From: Parcubacteria group bacterium ADurb.Bin159 | GTDB taxonomy: Bacteria; Patescibacteriota; Patescibacteriia; UBA2591; MWDC01 | Direction of reading: 5' to 3' | Length of the DNA stretch: 64,000 nucleotides | Assembly (NCBI GenBank): GCA_002070355.1 | Contig: MWDC01000001.1 | Location: forward strand, 67,994 to 131,993 | Shown: in pieces, positions 16,432 through 23,684 of the stretch | Numbering within the stretch: position 1 is the first letter of the stretch | Layout of the letters: every line of letters begins with the position of its first letter | Notes under the pieces: model-generated | What the model saw: the letters and a program-made list of their open reading frames with translations, nothing else | Database searches by the model: none | Told to the model about the DNA's origin: nothing | Translations under genes and position numbers: made by a program

Positions 16432-17124
16432 TTATTTCTTTTGATTAGTTGTATAATCACATTTCGGGTAATTAGAGCATCCGTAAAATTCTCCAAATTT
16501 GCCAGTTTTTTTCACTAAATTTCCGCCACAGCATGGGCAAATTCGAGACGCTTCTCTTGCCTTATCTTTATCCTTTTTAGCCATTTTGATATACCGAATA
16601 AGTTTGTATCCATCTATAAGTTCAATTGGCTTATCTTCAGCAAATTTCTCAGCTTCAAGTGTAAATTTATTTGTGGTAATAAAATATGCCTTTCCATTAG
16701 CAATATGGTCAGCCAAAGCACCATAGAAATCTCTGACATCGCCAACCGTTACCTCTGAGGTTATAAACTTTTTGCATTGAATGTAGCTTTTTACTCCGTC
16801 TTTTTCAATAATAACGTCAATGCCTCCGTCGTGCGATCCGCCGACTGCTTTAGATTTGTAGCCAAGCCGCGAAAACAAATCGGCAATATAATCCTCAAAT
16901 TCCGATGGCTTCATGCCACGAAGCCATTGCAATAGATCACGATCCGAACGCCATTTTTCTCCTTTTCTGAATTTTCGGCGAATATGCCAATTATCAATTT
17001 CCAAATTAAGCCAATAAAAGAATAATTTCATAACAACAATCGCCAATAAAACTGCCCAAAGCGGCCATAGCTTCCATAAAATCGGTAGTAAATTTTTAAT
17101 TATTTCCCAGAAATTAATTTGCAT
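16432..17124 (-). CDS. Membrane-anchored Mrr-cat (PD-(D/E)XK) restriction-endonuclease-like protein with a C-terminal topoisomerase-type C4 zinc ribbon
   Basis: N-terminal TM helices, then DLFSRLGYKSKAVGGSHDGGIDVIIEKDGVKSYIQCKKF (Mrr_cat signature D..D..QCK), then CPCCGG...CSNYPKC. Confidence 0.65.
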   Translation of the reverse strand: MQINFWEIIKNLLPILWKLWPLWAVLLAIVVMKLFFYWLNLEIDNWHIRRKFRKGEKWRSDRDLLQWLRGMKPSEFEDYIADLFSRLGYKSKAVGGSHDGGIDVIIEKDGVKSYIQCKKFITSEVTVGDVRDFYGALADHIANGKAYFITTNKFTLEAEKFAEDKPIELIDGYKLIRYIKMAKKDKDKAREASRICPCCGGNLVKKTGKFGEFYGCSNYPKCDYTTNQKK

Positions 17125-17130
17125 ATAATT

Positions 17131-20100
17131 TTAGTTTATAATCTCCTCCAATCTCCAAAAAGTGCTTCCACCTTCACGAATCAAATCGTCGATAAGTTTA
17201 TAAGTATCACCTTTTGTTTCGGCATTTTCATAGAGAGTCTTAATTGCCCCAAACCATTCCTCGTCATACATAAATGGCATGCGCATTTTACCACCTCGCA
17301 CATCACCTTCAAGTAAAGAAAGACGGGCAATCTCCAACGTATCTTTAGGTGCAGCTTTAGCCAATTCATTGATAGACTTAGTGAGAGCGTAATCCCATTC
17401 CAAAACACCCTTAGTTTTTTCTAAGGTCGCTTTTATTTGTCCAGCTAACCAGGCTGGTTCAAAGATTTTTTTCTCAAGATTCATCCAAAATCCAAACGCA
17501 ACAAATAGCTTCGGGTCGTCATAATTCTTAAGCAACCATTCCCAAAATTCAGTTAATCTTTTTTTAATTGCTGGGTCTTTTTTCAACTGCTCATTTACAC
17601 GATCATCATCGCCAGAAATGAACATCCGCCCGATAAAACTGATAAACTTGCTTTGCCGTTCAACATCTCGCTTCCAGAATTTCTTGAAAAGAGAATGATC
17701 AAACCCGAATTTTTCATGATAGACAACAAACGCCAACGCCAAATGAACAGCTATTCCTTCCTTTAGTTCTTTGAAATATTTGCGTTTTGAGTCCTCGTTG
17801 CCAGTCAAACTTAAGCCACGCTCATATAATTTTTGGAATTCTTGATCAAAGAATATTTCCTCATAAAGATTATTAGCAAGATATCCTTCCCAAGCAGCAA
17901 GATAAAGGTGTTTTTTAGTCGCTTCTTCTGGAAAAATTTGAGTCAAAAGCCCATGTATCCAATCTCTGTCACGGAAGTAGAAAGATGGTAGATAATATCC
18001 AAACATAAACATTAAGGCACGAGTATCTTCTTTTTTTAAGACTCTCTCATAGAGCTCCTTAATGTCTACGCTAATTTTAATCTTATCATCTTTTGAAAAT
18101 TGCTTTCCGTCTTGGTAAACAAACAACACAAAAGCCTGAAACGCCCGACCACGCACCGAATTAATCGCCATCGTAAACGGATCACTAACATAATTTTCTT
18201 CCTTATCGCCAGGGGAATGGGTCTTTATCGTCGCTGTTCCTAGCTCTTCGTCTTGTGGTTCTGGATCGGGGTATACTAAAAGATAGCTGAGAATCTCGAA
18301 AAGCTGACTGCGGTATTTGGAGAAATCTATAAGAATTTTACCGTCGTTTTCACTCAATAATTCTTGCAGGACATCCGTCATCACCGAGTGCACTCCAGTC
18401 CAACTCAAAAGCCATGCGTCAAACTTCTCTCGTTCCCTGATTTTATGGTTAAAGGCTTTTGCAATACCCGAATCCTTAATAGCAATAAAAACTTCTATCA
18501 GTTTATCCCACTGGATATCTGCCGCCTTTGTTTTGTCAGCACGTATAGCTTCTTGAATGCCTCGAAAAAACGAGTAAGTATAATGCTCGTCGAGAACATC
18601 CCTCTCAAAAAATAAACTGGCGTTCTGGATATAATCCTGTAATCGCTTAGCAATATCAACACGCAATTGTTCCTCTACGCCTTTAGCATTTAAGGGATTC
18701 AAAAAATCATCACTTGTGTTCTCTTTGCTCAAAGCTTCTGGCTTCCAGTCATTTCTTAATTTTTTGGCAATGTCAGCAATGGAAAGTTTACTAAATTCCT
18801 CTTGTGAAACTGCAGCTCTTGGTTTTACAAAACCGCTCACTATTTTTCCAATGGACGGTTCGGGTTCAAAAGTAGGATCACATTTTTTACCGAATATTTT
18901 TTCACAATCTTCTTTTTCTTCTGAAGTCAAAGAGTCATAAATACTGGAAAGAATCTGCCAGCCATCGCGCCTATACCATTGTTCTTCTTTTTTATCTTCA
19001 CGACTTTGTCCAAAATGCTTAAAGACATTCGATACATATTCACGCTGATAATCGAAATTGAGGACATTAAAGCTCTGTTTAAGGGCTTTCTTGTACTCTG
19101 TTCCAGATTCAATCTCATAATAATGTTTACCATCCTCCATCACCTCAAATAATTTAAAAAAGGACGCCTGTAATTCTGCCTGAAAAGCAACGGGACACAA
19201 ACTCAAAACAAAAAGACGCAGTCGCCACATCAACCTGCTTTCTGGTAAGGTTTGAATATATTTCTTATAAACCTCTCTGACCAATTCTGATTTGTCACAA
19301 TTATTGCCAATTAGTCTTTGACTGAGTGCTTTAATGGTCACTACTAAATCTTTGACGTTTTCTTGATCTGAATAATGTTTTTCATCGCCCAATTCCAAAG
19401 AAAAAAAATCAACATCAAAAAGATAAAAAGGGTCATGAATCGGAAATACTTCATTCTTCTCGGCGTCTTCGCCCAAACGCACGATTGCCGCCATCGTTCT
19501 TGTTGTAATCTCTAATGCTTTTTCAAGATATTGATCGCCTACAGCCACTAAATACTCAAAGACTTTCGTGTAAGAAAGGTCTGTGAAATAAAAAGGATTA
19601 TCCGATGGATAATCACGAGAAGTTGGTTTTGTTTCTTCTTTTGCTCTCACAGTAAGCACTGCTTCGGCAAGGACCAAGATATTCTCATAATCCTTAGCAG
19701 CGGCAAGTGTTTGGAATATTTTTTTATAATCAAATCCCCATTGATTAAATACGCTCATCAACCGCACCCAACCATCATCACGAATTTTCGGCACTATTCT
19801 CGCTAACTGCTCCGCTGGCAGAGAACTGCAAATTCTCAAAAATTGATCGACAATTTCGGGATTAAAATTATCTTTTGGGATAGAAACCGAAAGCATAATA
19901 TCTACCACTTCTTTCGCTTTTTTCTCCGCTATTCTTACAAGATAATTCAGTTCTGGGGTTGTTCGATATCCATATCTCGTTGGATCGTCGACTTTCTGTT
20001 TAATCACATCTAAGAGCCCATTATTCCAAAGCCAATCAAGCCAATTCTCATCTGCTTTTGTAAAAAAATATTGTCGTGCATCAAGATTTAAACCAATAAG

Positions 20101-20145
20101 TTCTCGAATTTTCTCTGGATCAAATTTTGCTGATTGTTTATCCAT
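17131..20145 (-). CDS. Large (1004 aa) hypothetical protein; no ATPase, nuclease or other recognisable motif
   Basis: Long uninterrupted ORF packed 5-6 bp from its neighbours in the R-M/Mrr operon. Predicted mostly alpha-helical. No Walker A. Confidence 0.6.
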   Translation of the reverse strand: MDKQSAKFDPEKIRELIGLNLDARQYFFTKADENWLDWLWNNGLLDVIKQKVDDPTRYGYRTTPELNYLVRIAEKKAKEVVDIMLSVSIPKDNFNPEIVDQFLRICSSLPAEQLARIVPKIRDDGWVRLMSVFNQWGFDYKKIFQTLAAAKDYENILVLAEAVLTVRAKEETKPTSRDYPSDNPFYFTDLSYTKVFEYLVAVGDQYLEKALEITTRTMAAIVRLGEDAEKNEVFPIHDPFYLFDVDFFSLELGDEKHYSDQENVKDLVVTIKALSQRLIGNNCDKSELVREVYKKYIQTLPESRLMWRLRLFVLSLCPVAFQAELQASFFKLFEVMEDGKHYYEIESGTEYKKALKQSFNVLNFDYQREYVSNVFKHFGQSREDKKEEQWYRRDGWQILSSIYDSLTSEEKEDCEKIFGKKCDPTFEPEPSIGKIVSGFVKPRAAVSQEEFSKLSIADIAKKLRNDWKPEALSKENTSDDFLNPLNAKGVEEQLRVDIAKRLQDYIQNASLFFERDVLDEHYTYSFFRGIQEAIRADKTKAADIQWDKLIEVFIAIKDSGIAKAFNHKIREREKFDAWLLSWTGVHSVMTDVLQELLSENDGKILIDFSKYRSQLFEILSYLLVYPDPEPQDEELGTATIKTHSPGDKEENYVSDPFTMAINSVRGRAFQAFVLFVYQDGKQFSKDDKIKISVDIKELYERVLKKEDTRALMFMFGYYLPSFYFRDRDWIHGLLTQIFPEEATKKHLYLAAWEGYLANNLYEEIFFDQEFQKLYERGLSLTGNEDSKRKYFKELKEGIAVHLALAFVVYHEKFGFDHSLFKKFWKRDVERQSKFISFIGRMFISGDDDRVNEQLKKDPAIKKRLTEFWEWLLKNYDDPKLFVAFGFWMNLEKKIFEPAWLAGQIKATLEKTKGVLEWDYALTKSINELAKAAPKDTLEIARLSLLEGDVRGGKMRMPFMYDEEWFGAIKTLYENAETKGDTYKLIDDLIREGGSTFWRLEEIIN

Positions 20146-20150
20146 ATTAC

Positions 20151-20756
20151 TTATTTACCTCCATTTATATCTTCTATTAGCTGAGGATTTATTCTCAAAA
20201 CCTCATCAAGCATTTGATGCACATCAAGCTGCCTTGTCAATGCCTTATTCATAATTTTTTCAAACTCCACTAAAAGTTTTTCAAACTCAACCTTATTAAA
20301 AGAAGAAAAATCAAAATTTTTATCCCATTGAGGATCAACTCCATGATGCGTTATATCATTAAGTTTTTTCCACAGAGGTTCTACTTTACTGCTATAGAAA
20401 TTTTTATCAAAACTTTCATTAGAACTTTCATCAAAATTTTTATCAACCGTTACAGAGCCAAAATTTTTAAACGCATCCATTCTCTTACTTGAAACTTGTT
20501 TCACCTGAATACTTAAGAATGGATAAAGAATCTCTCGTAAGGAGTTTGCCGCTTGGGCAATACGATCGGGATTACTTTTACATTCTTCCCTAATAGCAAA
20601 AACGGCACCTCGAAACATATCTGAAGGCTTTATTTTTAGTCCTCCTCGCTCATGCCACTCATCTAGGCGTCTACATAAATTTTCTTGTCCATCGGTTAAA
20701 CGCACGGGTGGGAGAGCATTATTTCCTATAGATTGTAGTGATGCATCACCGCCCAT
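20151..20756 (-). CDS. Hypothetical 201-aa protein with a DKNF(D/Y)xSS triple repeat
   Basis: ORF-track protein with 3-5 bp spacing to the restriction endonuclease upstream and the 1004-aa ORF downstream. Confidence 0.5.
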   Translation of the reverse strand: MGGDASLQSIGNNALPPVRLTDGQENLCRRLDEWHERGGLKIKPSDMFRGAVFAIREECKSNPDRIAQAANSLREILYPFLSIQVKQVSSKRMDAFKNFGSVTVDKNFDESSNESFDKNFYSSKVEPLWKKLNDITHHGVDPQWDKNFDFSSFNKVEFEKLLVEFEKIMNKALTRQLDVHQMLDEVLRINPQLIEDINGGK

Positions 20757-20759
20757 AAA

Positions 20760-21665
20760 TTATATATCTCTCAAGATATTCCTTAAAAAACCTTTTTTGA
20801 TGAAATTAATATTTAAGACATAATCCATTTGTTCAATTGCCTTCCTGATTTGATTTTGTCCTTGTCGCCAGCCATTTCCATCGGTAATCCAAACAAATTG
20901 CCAGCCACTATTTTGGAGCTCTCTTTGCCGATTTATGTAGGCATCAACAATCTCTTGAGGTTTTGAACCCTGCCCGCTGTAAAAATTAACTTCCATTGAT
21001 AGAAGTTTTGTTCCTTTTTTGATCGCAAAATCGGGAGTTCTATACCGGAGTTTCTTCGGGATTTTTACACCGCGTTCTTCGAATTTACTGAACTTCCCCT
21101 TAGGGAATATCTCAATATTCTTAAATTCTTTGGTGATATTTTGAAGTTCTTCCTCTACCACTTTTTCCATAAAACTACCACTTCGATTCTTACGTGCATT
21201 GCTATCCAAACCTACTTCAACCCCTAAGAGATAATCGTTAAGAACTCGAATGATTTTGAATAACTCTTGGATACCACTTTTTTTTACAAATTGAATAAAT
21301 TTCTTGATGTCACTTGGGGTTAAATCTTTTGAACAATCAAAACAACATACTTGATTTTTGCTTATATCCTCTAGTACATCAAATTTCTCATCACGCATTG
21401 CAACAAGAAGTGGTAAAACCCTTGCTGTCTTAGGGTATTCTGTTAAAATTTTCTCTAAATCTTTATCAAAATTTTTGGATTGAGTAAGTGTTCCCAAAAT
21501 TCCAATTTCAACTTTGTATTTCTCTACATTTGATTTAACCTTTTTCCAATTTACAAAAAAATCGTAAGTGCGATTAGTAGATAATAGTGAGCCAATAAAT
21601 GCTTCGTTAATCTGCTCAATATTAGTAAAACCAAAAAATGATTTATATGTTTGTATTTTTGCCAT
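20760..21665 (-). CDS. Type II restriction endonuclease, DpnII/MboI family (predicted GATC specificity)
   Basis: GVEVGLDSNARKNRSG and EVNFYSGQGSKP...WITDGNGW...LNINF align with R.DpnII motifs recalled from memory. Confidence 0.7.
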   Translation of the reverse strand: MAKIQTYKSFFGFTNIEQINEAFIGSLLSTNRTYDFFVNWKKVKSNVEKYKVEIGILGTLTQSKNFDKDLEKILTEYPKTARVLPLLVAMRDEKFDVLEDISKNQVCCFDCSKDLTPSDIKKFIQFVKKSGIQELFKIIRVLNDYLLGVEVGLDSNARKNRSGSFMEKVVEEELQNITKEFKNIEIFPKGKFSKFEERGVKIPKKLRYRTPDFAIKKGTKLLSMEVNFYSGQGSKPQEIVDAYINRQRELQNSGWQFVWITDGNGWRQGQNQIRKAIEQMDYVLNINFIKKGFLRNILRDI

Positions 21666-21670
21666 ATTGC

Positions 21671-22513
21671 TTAAATTAATTTAATAAACATTTGCTTGCG
21701 CTTAATTAAGTCTTTGAGTCGCTTTTTTGAAAGTTCAAGATATTTTTTCTCATTATCAATCCCTATAAATTTTCTATCGTATAGAATAGCAACTAAACCA
21801 GTAGTAGAGCTCCCTGCGAAAGGATCGAGTATTATGTCGCCAGGATTTGTGCTTGACAGAATAATTCTTTTCAAAAGCTCCATTGGCTTTTGTGTGGGGT
21901 GTTTACCAAATATTTTTTCTTCTGGCTTGGGAGTCCCTATTGCCCACACCGAACGCATTTGTTTATTTTGCCGATGGATAAGGTCGTTTCTAAACGCACG
22001 CATCTGCTCGTAATTGAACACGTGCTTTGCTTTCTTTTCTTTACGTGCCCACAATAATGTTTCGTGGCTGGCAGTAAAATAACGGCAACTTAAATTGGGA
22101 GAAGCATTGGGTTTATACCAGGAGATATCATTTAAGATATGATAACCGCTTAATTGAAGTGCGTAACCACATTGATAAATTGAGTGATAAGTCCCACTAA
22201 TCCAAATTGTACCGTAAGGTTTAAGAACTCGACGGCAAGCTTGAACCCAAGTAATATGAAAATCTAAATCCTTTTGAAAACCTTTGCTTTTGTCCCAATC
22301 TCCCTTATTAACACTTACACGTCTGCCAGCGTGAACGCTAAAACCACCATTAGAAAGATTATACGGTGGATCAGCAAAAATCATATCAATCGAATTGTCT
22401 GGAAGCTGTTTCAAAATCGACAGATAATCTGAACAGTATAAAACAAAATTACCTTCAGAAAAATAAGGTTTTTTCTTGATAGAAGATAGAACTTTTTGAG
22501 AATTAGTTTCCAT
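21671..22513 (-). CDS. Beta-class N6-adenine DNA methyltransferase, M.DpnA (DpnIIB)-like
   Basis: Motif IV IFADPPYNLSNGG precedes motif I DPFAGSSTTG. Strong similarity to M.DpnA through ...NLSCRYFT...KHPTQKP.... Confidence 0.8.
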   Translation of the reverse strand: METNSQKVLSSIKKKPYFSEGNFVLYCSDYLSILKQLPDNSIDMIFADPPYNLSNGGFSVHAGRRVSVNKGDWDKSKGFQKDLDFHITWVQACRRVLKPYGTIWISGTYHSIYQCGYALQLSGYHILNDISWYKPNASPNLSCRYFTASHETLLWARKEKKAKHVFNYEQMRAFRNDLIHRQNKQMRSVWAIGTPKPEEKIFGKHPTQKPMELLKRIILSSTNPGDIILDPFAGSSTTGLVAILYDRKFIGIDNEKKYLELSKKRLKDLIKRKQMFIKLI

Positions 22514-22919: not shown

Positions 22920-23684
22920 ATGAATATGCCGAAAGTAAAATTTACTGACATTCCATTATCCAAAGAAACTGATTGGATGTATGGTTTTTTGTTCAAAAAT
23001 GAATGGGATTGGGGAAGATATATTTTAAAAAAACATCCTAAAATTAAAAAAGTTTTTTCTTATAAGACGGAAGCAGAACGAGTTAATTTTTTAAGAAATT
23101 ATATAATTCAATTTAAAAAAGATAATCAAGAACTAATAGAAAAAAGTAAAACGGAATACCAAGAAGTATGGAAGGAAATGGAAAAAGATTTTTTTATTAT
23201 TCTGTCAGAAATTTTAAAAATTGACTGGCCTCAAAATAGAAAAGTGATAAAAGCAATGCTCTCGATTAATCCAATTTGCCCTCGTTTTTTAAACGATTGG
23301 AGTTTTTCTATTTTCTATAATTATAAAAAGATAAGTTATGCAATGGAAGTAATTATGCATGAATGCTGTCATTTTTTATATTTTGAAAAATGGAAAAAAG
23401 TTTTTCCAAAAACAAACCCAAAAAAGTTTGAGGCACCATGCTTGGAATGGCATTTAAGTGAAATTTTAGCACCAATTATTTTAAATGACCTTAGGATTAA
23501 AAAATTATTGGGACGAAAAGCAGATTTTTACGAAGAACATAAAAAAATAAAAATTGGGAATAAAACCGTTCCTGAATATTTTAACGATTTATACAAAAAA
23601 AATAATATAGATAAAAATTTTGACGAATTCCTAAAAGAATCTTATAAGGCAATCAAAAAGAATAAGGTGCTATTTGAAATATAA
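22920..23684 (+). CDS. Hypothetical protein with an HExxH-like motif (MHECCH)
   Basis: 254-aa ORF; possible metallopeptidase-like zinc site. Otherwise uncharacterised. Confidence 0.4.
   Translation: MNMPKVKFTDIPLSKETDWMYGFLFKNEWDWGRYILKKHPKIKKVFSYKTEAERVNFLRNYIIQFKKDNQELIEKSKTEYQEVWKEMEKDFFIILSEILKIDWPQNRKVIKAMLSINPICPRFLNDWSFSIFYNYKKISYAMEVIMHECCHFLYFEKWKKVFPKTNPKKFEAPCLEWHLSEILAPIILNDLRIKKLLGRKADFYEEHKKIKIGNKTVPEYFNDLYKKNNIDKNFDEFLKESYKAIKKNKVLFEI

Follow-up and report, generated by a model that had tools for sequence, protein, structure and literature searches.

A predicted two-part defence protein of the Dsr1/Avs7-sensor superfamily behind a restriction-modification gene pair of a Patescibacteria contig

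In a stretch of 64,000 nucleotides from Parcubacteria group bacterium ADurb.Bin159 (contig MWDC01000001.1, positions 67,994 to 131,993 of the forward strand; hereafter the window), two adjacent genes on the minus strand encode proteins of 1004 amino acids (aa; 17131..20145) and 201 aa (20151..20756). With a probability of roughly 0.62, the pair represents one two-part defence protein of the abortive-infection type, which belongs to the Dsr1/Avs7-sensor superfamily and is divided at the linker that joins the effector to the sensor. The larger of the two, with 1004 aa, is an all-alpha solenoid with homology to Dsr1/Avs7-type sensors and carries neither a SIR2 domain nor a STAND NTPase. The 201-aa protein, likewise all-alpha, corresponds to the N-terminal effector domain of such a sensor protein in detached form, and its pP_pnuc_1-like domain is a predicted nuclease. 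The original prediction, which had been made from the DNA letters and translated open reading frames (ORFs), regarded the two genes as a candidate defence module of an undescribed family.

The predicted sensor and effector subunits

Both ORFs were found with the lengths that had been given for them, and so were the short junctions: as read from the sequence, the stop codon of the upstream restriction endonuclease (REase) gene is separated by 3 nt from the ATG of the 201-aa gene, whose own stop codon lies 5 nt before the ATG of the 1004-aa gene. A GGAGG is located 12 nt before the latter ATG. A word-indexed search retrieved at least 386 homologues of the 1004-aa protein, and 110 homologues of the 201-aa protein were found; because of these numbers, both ORFs are considered real genes rather than chance ORFs. 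At E ≤ 1e-3 the family of the large protein had 2332 cluster representatives, and 428 remained at E ≤ 1e-30. A hypothetical protein on record for Parcubacteria bacterium ADurb.Bin159 matched the 1004-aa protein with 100% identity.

The AlphaFold2 (AF2) model of the 1004-aa protein is an all-alpha solenoid (pLDDT 87.4). No enzymatic domain and no AAA or STAND match were detected in it with Pfam, and a motif scan for Walker A, HKD (PLD), NPPY/DPPY (methyltransferase) and DEAD (helicase) strings was negative, in agreement with what had been noted from the sequence at the outset. A P-loop and an ABC domain were found in neither of the two proteins, SIR2 was absent from both in Pfam, NCBIfam and PADLOC, and PHROGs and NCBIfam returned nothing meaningful. 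The PADLOC search, for which a negative outcome had been expected, did produce a match at the level of the hidden Markov model: residues 290-975 aligned with positions 588-1197 (610 positions) of the 1227-position Dsr1 model PDLC04166 (E 7.7e-19), that is, with the part of the profile from position 588 onward, outside SIR2. Dsr1 stands for defence-associated sirtuin 1 (Gao et al. 2020; Garb et al. 2022). Among 44 diverse relatives of the large protein (26-47% identity to the window protein), 20 matched the same model, the best with an E-value of 1.9e-25, and no other PADLOC defence family was matched by any of them. Strings resembling the Rx4-6H motif of HEPN nucleases also occur in the 1004-aa protein (R515..H521 and R725..H731); they were rejected as a motif, being unconserved in the alignment of diverse homologues (A4).

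A second line of evidence came from a tblastn search of plasmids, which led to a 1493-aa protein of Halocatena salina with STAND signatures (nSTAND1, AAA_22) at residues 180-340. When compared by hhalign, the sensor-family profile aligned over 758 columns with the region that follows the NTPase in this protein (residues 570-1381; probability 99.5%, E 9e-23). Since the alignment sets in near residue 23 of the large protein, essentially the whole protein would constitute a sensor module without NTPase and without SIR2. The Halocatena protein is Avs7-like by its architecture, and the 1004-aa protein was compared with SeAvs7 and EcDsr1 themselves through the descriptions of these proteins. In a preprint of January 2026, Lee, Koonin, Gao and colleagues (PMC12803255) reported that Dsr1 has the same TPR-type sensor, described as bilobed and sharply bent, as Avs7 (antiviral STAND family 7). 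According to the preprint this sensor also occurs in other proteins without an NTPase, whose effectors are NADases, nucleases or kinases; one of them is a Streptomyces protein with a HEPN-like RNase. Taken with these similarities, the 1004-aa protein is most likely an NTPase-less and SIR2-less sensor of the Dsr1/Avs7 superfamily. The earlier description of a long alpha-helical scaffold thus holds as far as the helical, non-enzymatic nature of the protein is concerned; its status as an orphan scaffold does not, and the proposal of an undescribed family is contradicted by the Dsr1 match, by the alignment to the STAND-linked sensor region and by the published superfamily.

Two plasmid-borne relatives were observed in passing. 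The Halocatena gene (L077:1436-5917, plasmid NZ_CP096023.1), which combines the STAND NTPase with this sensor, is flanked by transposases, and its divergently oriented neighbour is annotated as 'HEPN domain-containing protein'. A conjugative plasmid of Legionella pneumophila (NZ_CP016871.1) carries, flanked by an IS3 and an IS256 transposase, a distant sensor homologue (L076:3020-5389; query residues 484-996 aligned at 23.5% identity), which seems to be N-terminally shortened relative to its relatives P0381 and P0383 of 1052-1104 aa. This homologue was considered as a bridge to SIR2 proteins and dismissed, as it belongs to a small family without annotated domains.

For the 201-aa protein, an all-alpha AF2 model was obtained (pLDDT 84.6, pTM 0.79). 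Within the effector subfamily of the window (A2), N62, D64, Q68, S72-L-R74, Y78, G100, H137-H138, D178 and H180 are invariant and R175-Q176 nearly so. In the wider effector family, which includes fused and divergent members, the string S72-L-R74-E75 (R in 53 of 54 sequences) and the histidines H137 (51/54) and H138 (45/54) are near-universal, and R175 and H180 are retained in 27 and 37 of the 54 sequences, respectively. The original search for HEPN motifs had been directed at the 1004-aa protein alone; the 201-aa protein contains the string R175-QLDV-H180 (R-Q-x-D-x-H), which is conserved in the A2 subfamily and lies in the model where helix 155-172 meets helix 176-188. For HEPN domains an Rx4-6H rule has been described, with a polar residue after the arginine and a location between two helices towards the end of the domain (PMC3710099), and the R175..H180 string would fit this rule. 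HEPN membership of the 201-aa protein is therefore plausible, though unproven.

The sole recurrent Pfam match of the effector family was pP_pnuc_1 (PF18165), a predicted pPIWI-associating nuclease. The window protein reached 16.7 bits (cut-off 26.3) over profile positions 10-44 of 133 only; 27 of 51 family members matched below threshold as well, and the fused relative P0369 scored just above the cut-off (26.6 bits). No mention of pP_pnuc_1 was found in a literature search, and the pPIWI-RE paper gives no description of it. From the conserved residues, the all-alpha fold and the profile matches, the 201-aa protein is probably a nuclease, which would act like a metal-independent RNase and use arginine and histidine. 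The notion of a system without an obvious enzymatic domain consequently gives way to that of a sensor with a predicted effector nuclease.

The triple DKNF repeat, to which attention had been drawn originally, is indeed present at residues 105, 117 and 145 of the 201-aa protein. Its first two copies arise from a 12-bp tandem repeat at 20398..20446 on the minus strand (4.1 copies, 78% matches; TRF), which gives rise to a 12-residue insertion that occurs in no aligned homologue and lies in a loop of low pLDDT (residues 101-120 of the AF2 model). The repeat was rejected as a functional motif because it is an unconserved, lineage-specific loop expansion. In its own right it presents a case of a slippage-driven, in-frame insertion in a coding region that enlarges a disordered loop of the effector.

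Split, fused and swapped effectors

To place the pair in a wider context, 75 genomic loci of GTDB species representatives were surveyed, 64 of which had a scorable large gene. The phylogenetic distribution of the sensor family is patchy. Most of its members belong to Patescibacteria, and others were found in Caldilineaceae, Nitrospirales, gammaproteobacterial metagenome-assembled genomes (MAGs), Fibrobacterota, Omnitrophota and one Methanosarcinales MAG. Four IMG/VR viral contigs carry the sensor family too, and recombinases or insertion sequence (IS) elements sometimes adjoin the pair.

By length, two classes can be told apart among the homologues of the large protein, one of about 1000 aa and one of about 1145-1208 aa. 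The long class consists of effector-sensor fusions, whose N-terminal domain is homologous to the 201-aa protein; for P0003, residues 3-183 share 36% identity with it (E 2e-27). Such fusions were present at 16 of the 64 scorable loci, about a quarter. Nearly every split sensor is preceded by a small ORF in the same orientation, which either overlaps the sensor gene or stops no more than about 40 nt before it. Because of the fusions, the tight coupling at nearly all loci and the recurrent R-M neighbours described below, the two genes are regarded as one unit, and the proposal that they act together in defence was strengthened on the same grounds.

In 37 of 47 cases the upstream small ORF belongs to one BLAST-linked family with the 201-aa protein of the window, and the remainder encode other modules. 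At two loci (L013, L036) the partner is a CHAT-like caspase-type protease with a visible His/Cys dyad (Pfam CHAT E 1.5e-4, below cut-off), and at five (L002, L011, L020, L022, L070) it is a protein with transmembrane helices. In Caldilineaceae an additional N-terminal FRG domain (Pfam E 4.6e-16) is fused before the domain of the 201-aa type (L027:6819-7940, L029:160-1251, L032:6816-7940, L048:6846-7952). In a rough neighbour-joining tree of the sensors these effector states are thoroughly interleaved. Thus, the sensor of L002, which has a transmembrane partner, groups with that of the window, to which it is 80% identical. Two separate contigs of one Paceibacterota MAG (DATDXL01) encode near-identical sensors (L035:3012-6586 and L036:470-4536), the first with a divergent effector of the 201-aa type and the second with the CHAT-like protease, which looks like a natural effector swap within a single genome. 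Furthermore, the pair of the window and P0003 are 83% identical in the sensor and 36% in the effector domain; this contrast suggests either recombinational replacement of the effector or a much faster evolution of it. The interleaving of partners and the contrast between sensor and effector identity therefore argue that a constant sensor is combined with exchangeable effectors, of which the 201-aa protein is, judged from these comparisons, one swappable version.

These observations bear on two alternatives. In the first, the pair would be an addiction module resembling a toxin-antitoxin system, which stabilises the R-M island with the small protein as toxin and the large one as antitoxin or chaperone, and which senses no phage. 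A small predicted nuclease that is tightly coupled to a larger partner, and a mobile, patchy occurrence with recombinases or IS elements sometimes next to it, would be expected of such a module. However, an antitoxin of about 1000 aa is unusual, covalent fusion at about a quarter of the loci runs contrary to classical toxin-antitoxin logic, the same large protein is also paired with CHAT-like and transmembrane modules, and it is homologous to a proven sensor domain, which makes this alternative improbable. In the second, the large protein would be a housekeeping scaffold, for example a HEAT/ARM adaptor, that merely lies beside R-M genes. Its patchy distribution resembles that left by horizontal gene transfer, its sole match in a library of models is to a defence family (Dsr1), and effector swapping, copies on viral contigs and the enrichment of R-M genes all speak against a housekeeping role, so that we attach hardly any weight to it.

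The restriction-modification neighbourhood

In the window, five closely packed, co-oriented genes on the minus strand form a cluster, the first of which encodes an N6/N4 DNA methyltransferase (MTase; 21671..22513, Pfam N6_N4_Mtase 2.1e-59, PADLOC MTase_II 1.7e-98). It is followed by a gene for a Type II REase of the DpnII family (20760..21665, Pfam DpnII 3.8e-80, PADLOC REase_II), the 201-aa and 1004-aa genes and an Mrr_cat nuclease gene (16432..17124, Pfam Mrr_cat 8.1e-29, C-terminal Zn_ribbon_Top1 1.8e-15). The position of the pair between an R-M pair and an Mrr-like nuclease was thereby verified with Pfam; all three flanking genes are treated as context and not as core of the system. Housekeeping genes (rpoD, dnaG, a class I aminoacyl-tRNA synthetase and ABC exporters) border the cluster. 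A scan for promoters and terminators yielded counts no different from those of shuffled sequences and was hence uninformative.

Two genes on either side of the pair were inspected across the surveyed loci, which gave 113 upstream and 118 downstream neighbours. MTase-domain matches were found in about 22 of the upstream versus about 4 of the downstream neighbours (Fisher p = 1e-4). Upstream Pfam matches comprised N6_Mtase (14), Eco57I (12), MmeI_Mtase (10), ResIII (9), N6_N4_Mtase (8), TaqI_C (8) and DpnII (2), and with PADLOC a Type IIG REase-MTase was identified in at least 11 upstream proteins, with E-values down to 0. The upstream R-M genes are mostly co-oriented with the pair and often overlap it; the downstream genes are heterogeneous. 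At nine loci (L008, L011, L013, L017, L018, L035, L038, L054, L072) a Type IIG gene lies directly upstream, and these MmeI/Eco57I-like genes, encoding 900-1240 aa, end -28 to +83 nt from the effector gene or fused gene. The enzymes are diverse and their similarity correlates weakly with that of the sensors (Spearman 0.28), from which it follows that R-M genes and the pair were brought together repeatedly; a single co-inherited cassette of Type IIG enzyme and sensor was rejected for the same reason. About half of the loci are without an R-M gene within two genes of the pair.

This polarity favours the main rival explanation, according to which the large protein would monitor the adjoining restriction enzyme or phage anti-restriction proteins rather than a capsid, and would free the small nuclease once restriction has been neutralised, much as in PrrC-EcoprrI or PARIS. 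Enrichment of R-M genes directly upstream is strong and one-sided, the genes are co-oriented and their ORFs often overlap; moreover, HEPN-type RNases of R-M operons that serve as a second line of defence are well documented, and at least 16 HEPN clades have been linked to R-M systems (Anantharaman et al., 2013; PMC3710099). On the other hand, the R-M systems that accompany the pair belong to unrelated types (DpnII Type II, Type IIG, ResIII-type, Type I MTases) and there is no co-variation between the Type IIG enzymes and the sensor, which renders a specific protein-protein guard interface unlikely. The many loci that lack a nearby R-M gene, and the response of the characterised homologous sensors to a major capsid protein (MCP; PMC12803255), likewise count against it. 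On balance a guard or back-up of this kind is unlikely, if clearly less so than an addiction module.

The Mrr-like gene had been named in the original prediction as one of the neighbours between which the pair is embedded. As homologues of it were found downstream at only 2 of about 64 related loci (L001, L012), it is not conserved and was rejected as a component of the system. Taken by itself, the gene at 16432-17124 (minus strand) shows an unusual pairing, in that its Mrr_cat nuclease domain is accompanied N-terminally by a hydrophobic segment, which probably spans the membrane, and C-terminally by a C4 zinc ribbon of the topoisomerase I type. On the other side of the cluster, where the AT content of the region is highest (GC 0.29), there is a divergently oriented ORF of 254 aa (22920-23684, plus strand). 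An HExxH-type string (HECCH) is present in it, and no family of Pfam, PADLOC, NCBIfam or PHROG was matched. The ORF may represent a small metalloprotease-like gene on the border of the island.

Proposed mechanism and relation to known systems

For the Dsr1/Avs7 superfamily it has been reported that the HK97-fold MCP of phages triggers both SeAvs7 and EcDsr1, that the N-terminal effector is required for defence and that split proteins exist (PMC12803255). By homology with EcDsr1 and SeAvs7, the 1004-aa protein would act by helical-repeat pattern recognition and bind a conserved structural protein of a phage, with the HK97-fold MCP as leading candidate. The 201-aa effector would dock non-covalently on the conserved N-terminal region of the sensor and stay inactive until the trigger is bound, whereupon a rearrangement or oligomerisation of the sensor induced by the ligand would activate it. 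Probably a metal-independent nuclease of RNase type, the effector may use R74 and H137/H138, together with R175/H180 in the subfamily of the window, and once activated would damage RNA or DNA, so that the infected cell is arrested and the infection aborted. The pair would be co-transcribed at the 3' end of the R-M operon and form a second layer behind restriction.

Several points weigh against this two-part sensor-effector model. The polarity of the upstream R-M genes is unexplained by a pure capsid sensor, and what is known of the clade comes from sequences and models. Identity between the sensor and its STAND-linked counterpart from Halocatena is about 20%, and the ligand may therefore differ from the MCP. 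Searches with single sequences and profiles returned no PDB relatives for either protein. Finally, pP_pnuc_1 is itself a computational prediction, of which the match spans only 35 of 133 positions. A bolder version would make the pair a dedicated R-M back-up, in which its recurrent place as the polar last genes of unrelated R-M operons reflects functional coupling, for example activation when restriction fails or is inhibited, and would at the same time make the pP_pnuc_1-like domain a biochemically new effector class outside canonical HEPN and the main abortive-infection arm of Patescibacteria; we consider this combination unlikely.

With Dsr1 the pair shares the homologous helical sensor region, the effector located N-terminally of the sensor without an NTPase and, probably, a phage protein as trigger, the MCP having been shown as such for EcDsr1. 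It differs from Dsr1 in lacking the SIR2 NADase, in its pP_pnuc_1-like predicted nuclease effector on a separate polypeptide and in a clade centred on Patescibacteria. Because of this effector, depletion of NAD+ is not expected. Avs7, compared through the Avs7-like Halocatena protein, has the same superfamily of sensor and variable N-terminal effectors, whereas the pair of the window has no STAND NTPase (NBD-HD1-WHD), no Walker A and no oligomerisation ATPase; tetramerisation driven by an NTPase therefore cannot be the way in which it is activated. Among the architectures described so far, the nearest is probably that of the NTPase-less HEPN-like sensor protein of Lee et al. (2026), in which an Avs7/Dsr1 sensor is combined with an RNase-type effector, although that protein, compared by its description, is a single fused polypeptide.

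More distant parallels exist as well. DSR2 combines SIR2 with an alpha-solenoid that senses the tail tube protein of phages, and the concept of an effector joined to a helical-repeat sensor for a phage structural protein is shared with the pair. As in PrrC/EcoprrI and other R-M-linked HEPN nucleases, a predicted RNase-type effector is found within R-M operons and likely provides a second layer; unlike PrrC/RloC, the pair has no ABC/Rad50-like ATPase, its sensor is a helical repeat, the accompanying R-M types vary and HEPN membership is unproven. Since the sensor superfamily, its exchangeable effectors, including the HEPN-like RNase, and split forms are already contained in the preprint (PMC12803255), the pair is not a categorically new system. 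Judged by the descriptions given there rather than by its list of entries, and leaving aside the 'Dallas' system obtained from Patescibacteria DNA (PMC12366544), the Patescibacteria-centred clade is probably new. By the same comparison, the pP_pnuc_1-like effector, the frequent natural fission, fusion and swapping, and the polar R-M association may be new as well.

Taken together, what looked like an orphan gene pair can now be tested as a member of the Dsr1/Avs7 sensor superfamily, with the phage capsid or another structural protein as trigger hypothesis and R74, H137, H138, R175 and H180 as candidate catalytic residues. To our knowledge, a pP_pnuc_1-like effector has not been characterised biochemically in any system. 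The split, fused and swapped variants that occur in nature can serve as an experiment on the way in which a sensor without an NTPase signals ligand binding to different effectors, and the strong polarity of the upstream R-M genes raises the question whether abortive infection is regulated together with restriction. For Patescibacteria, a single phage and very few defence systems are known (PMC12366544); the abundance of the clade in this group gives a handle on the immunity of epibionts with reduced genomes.

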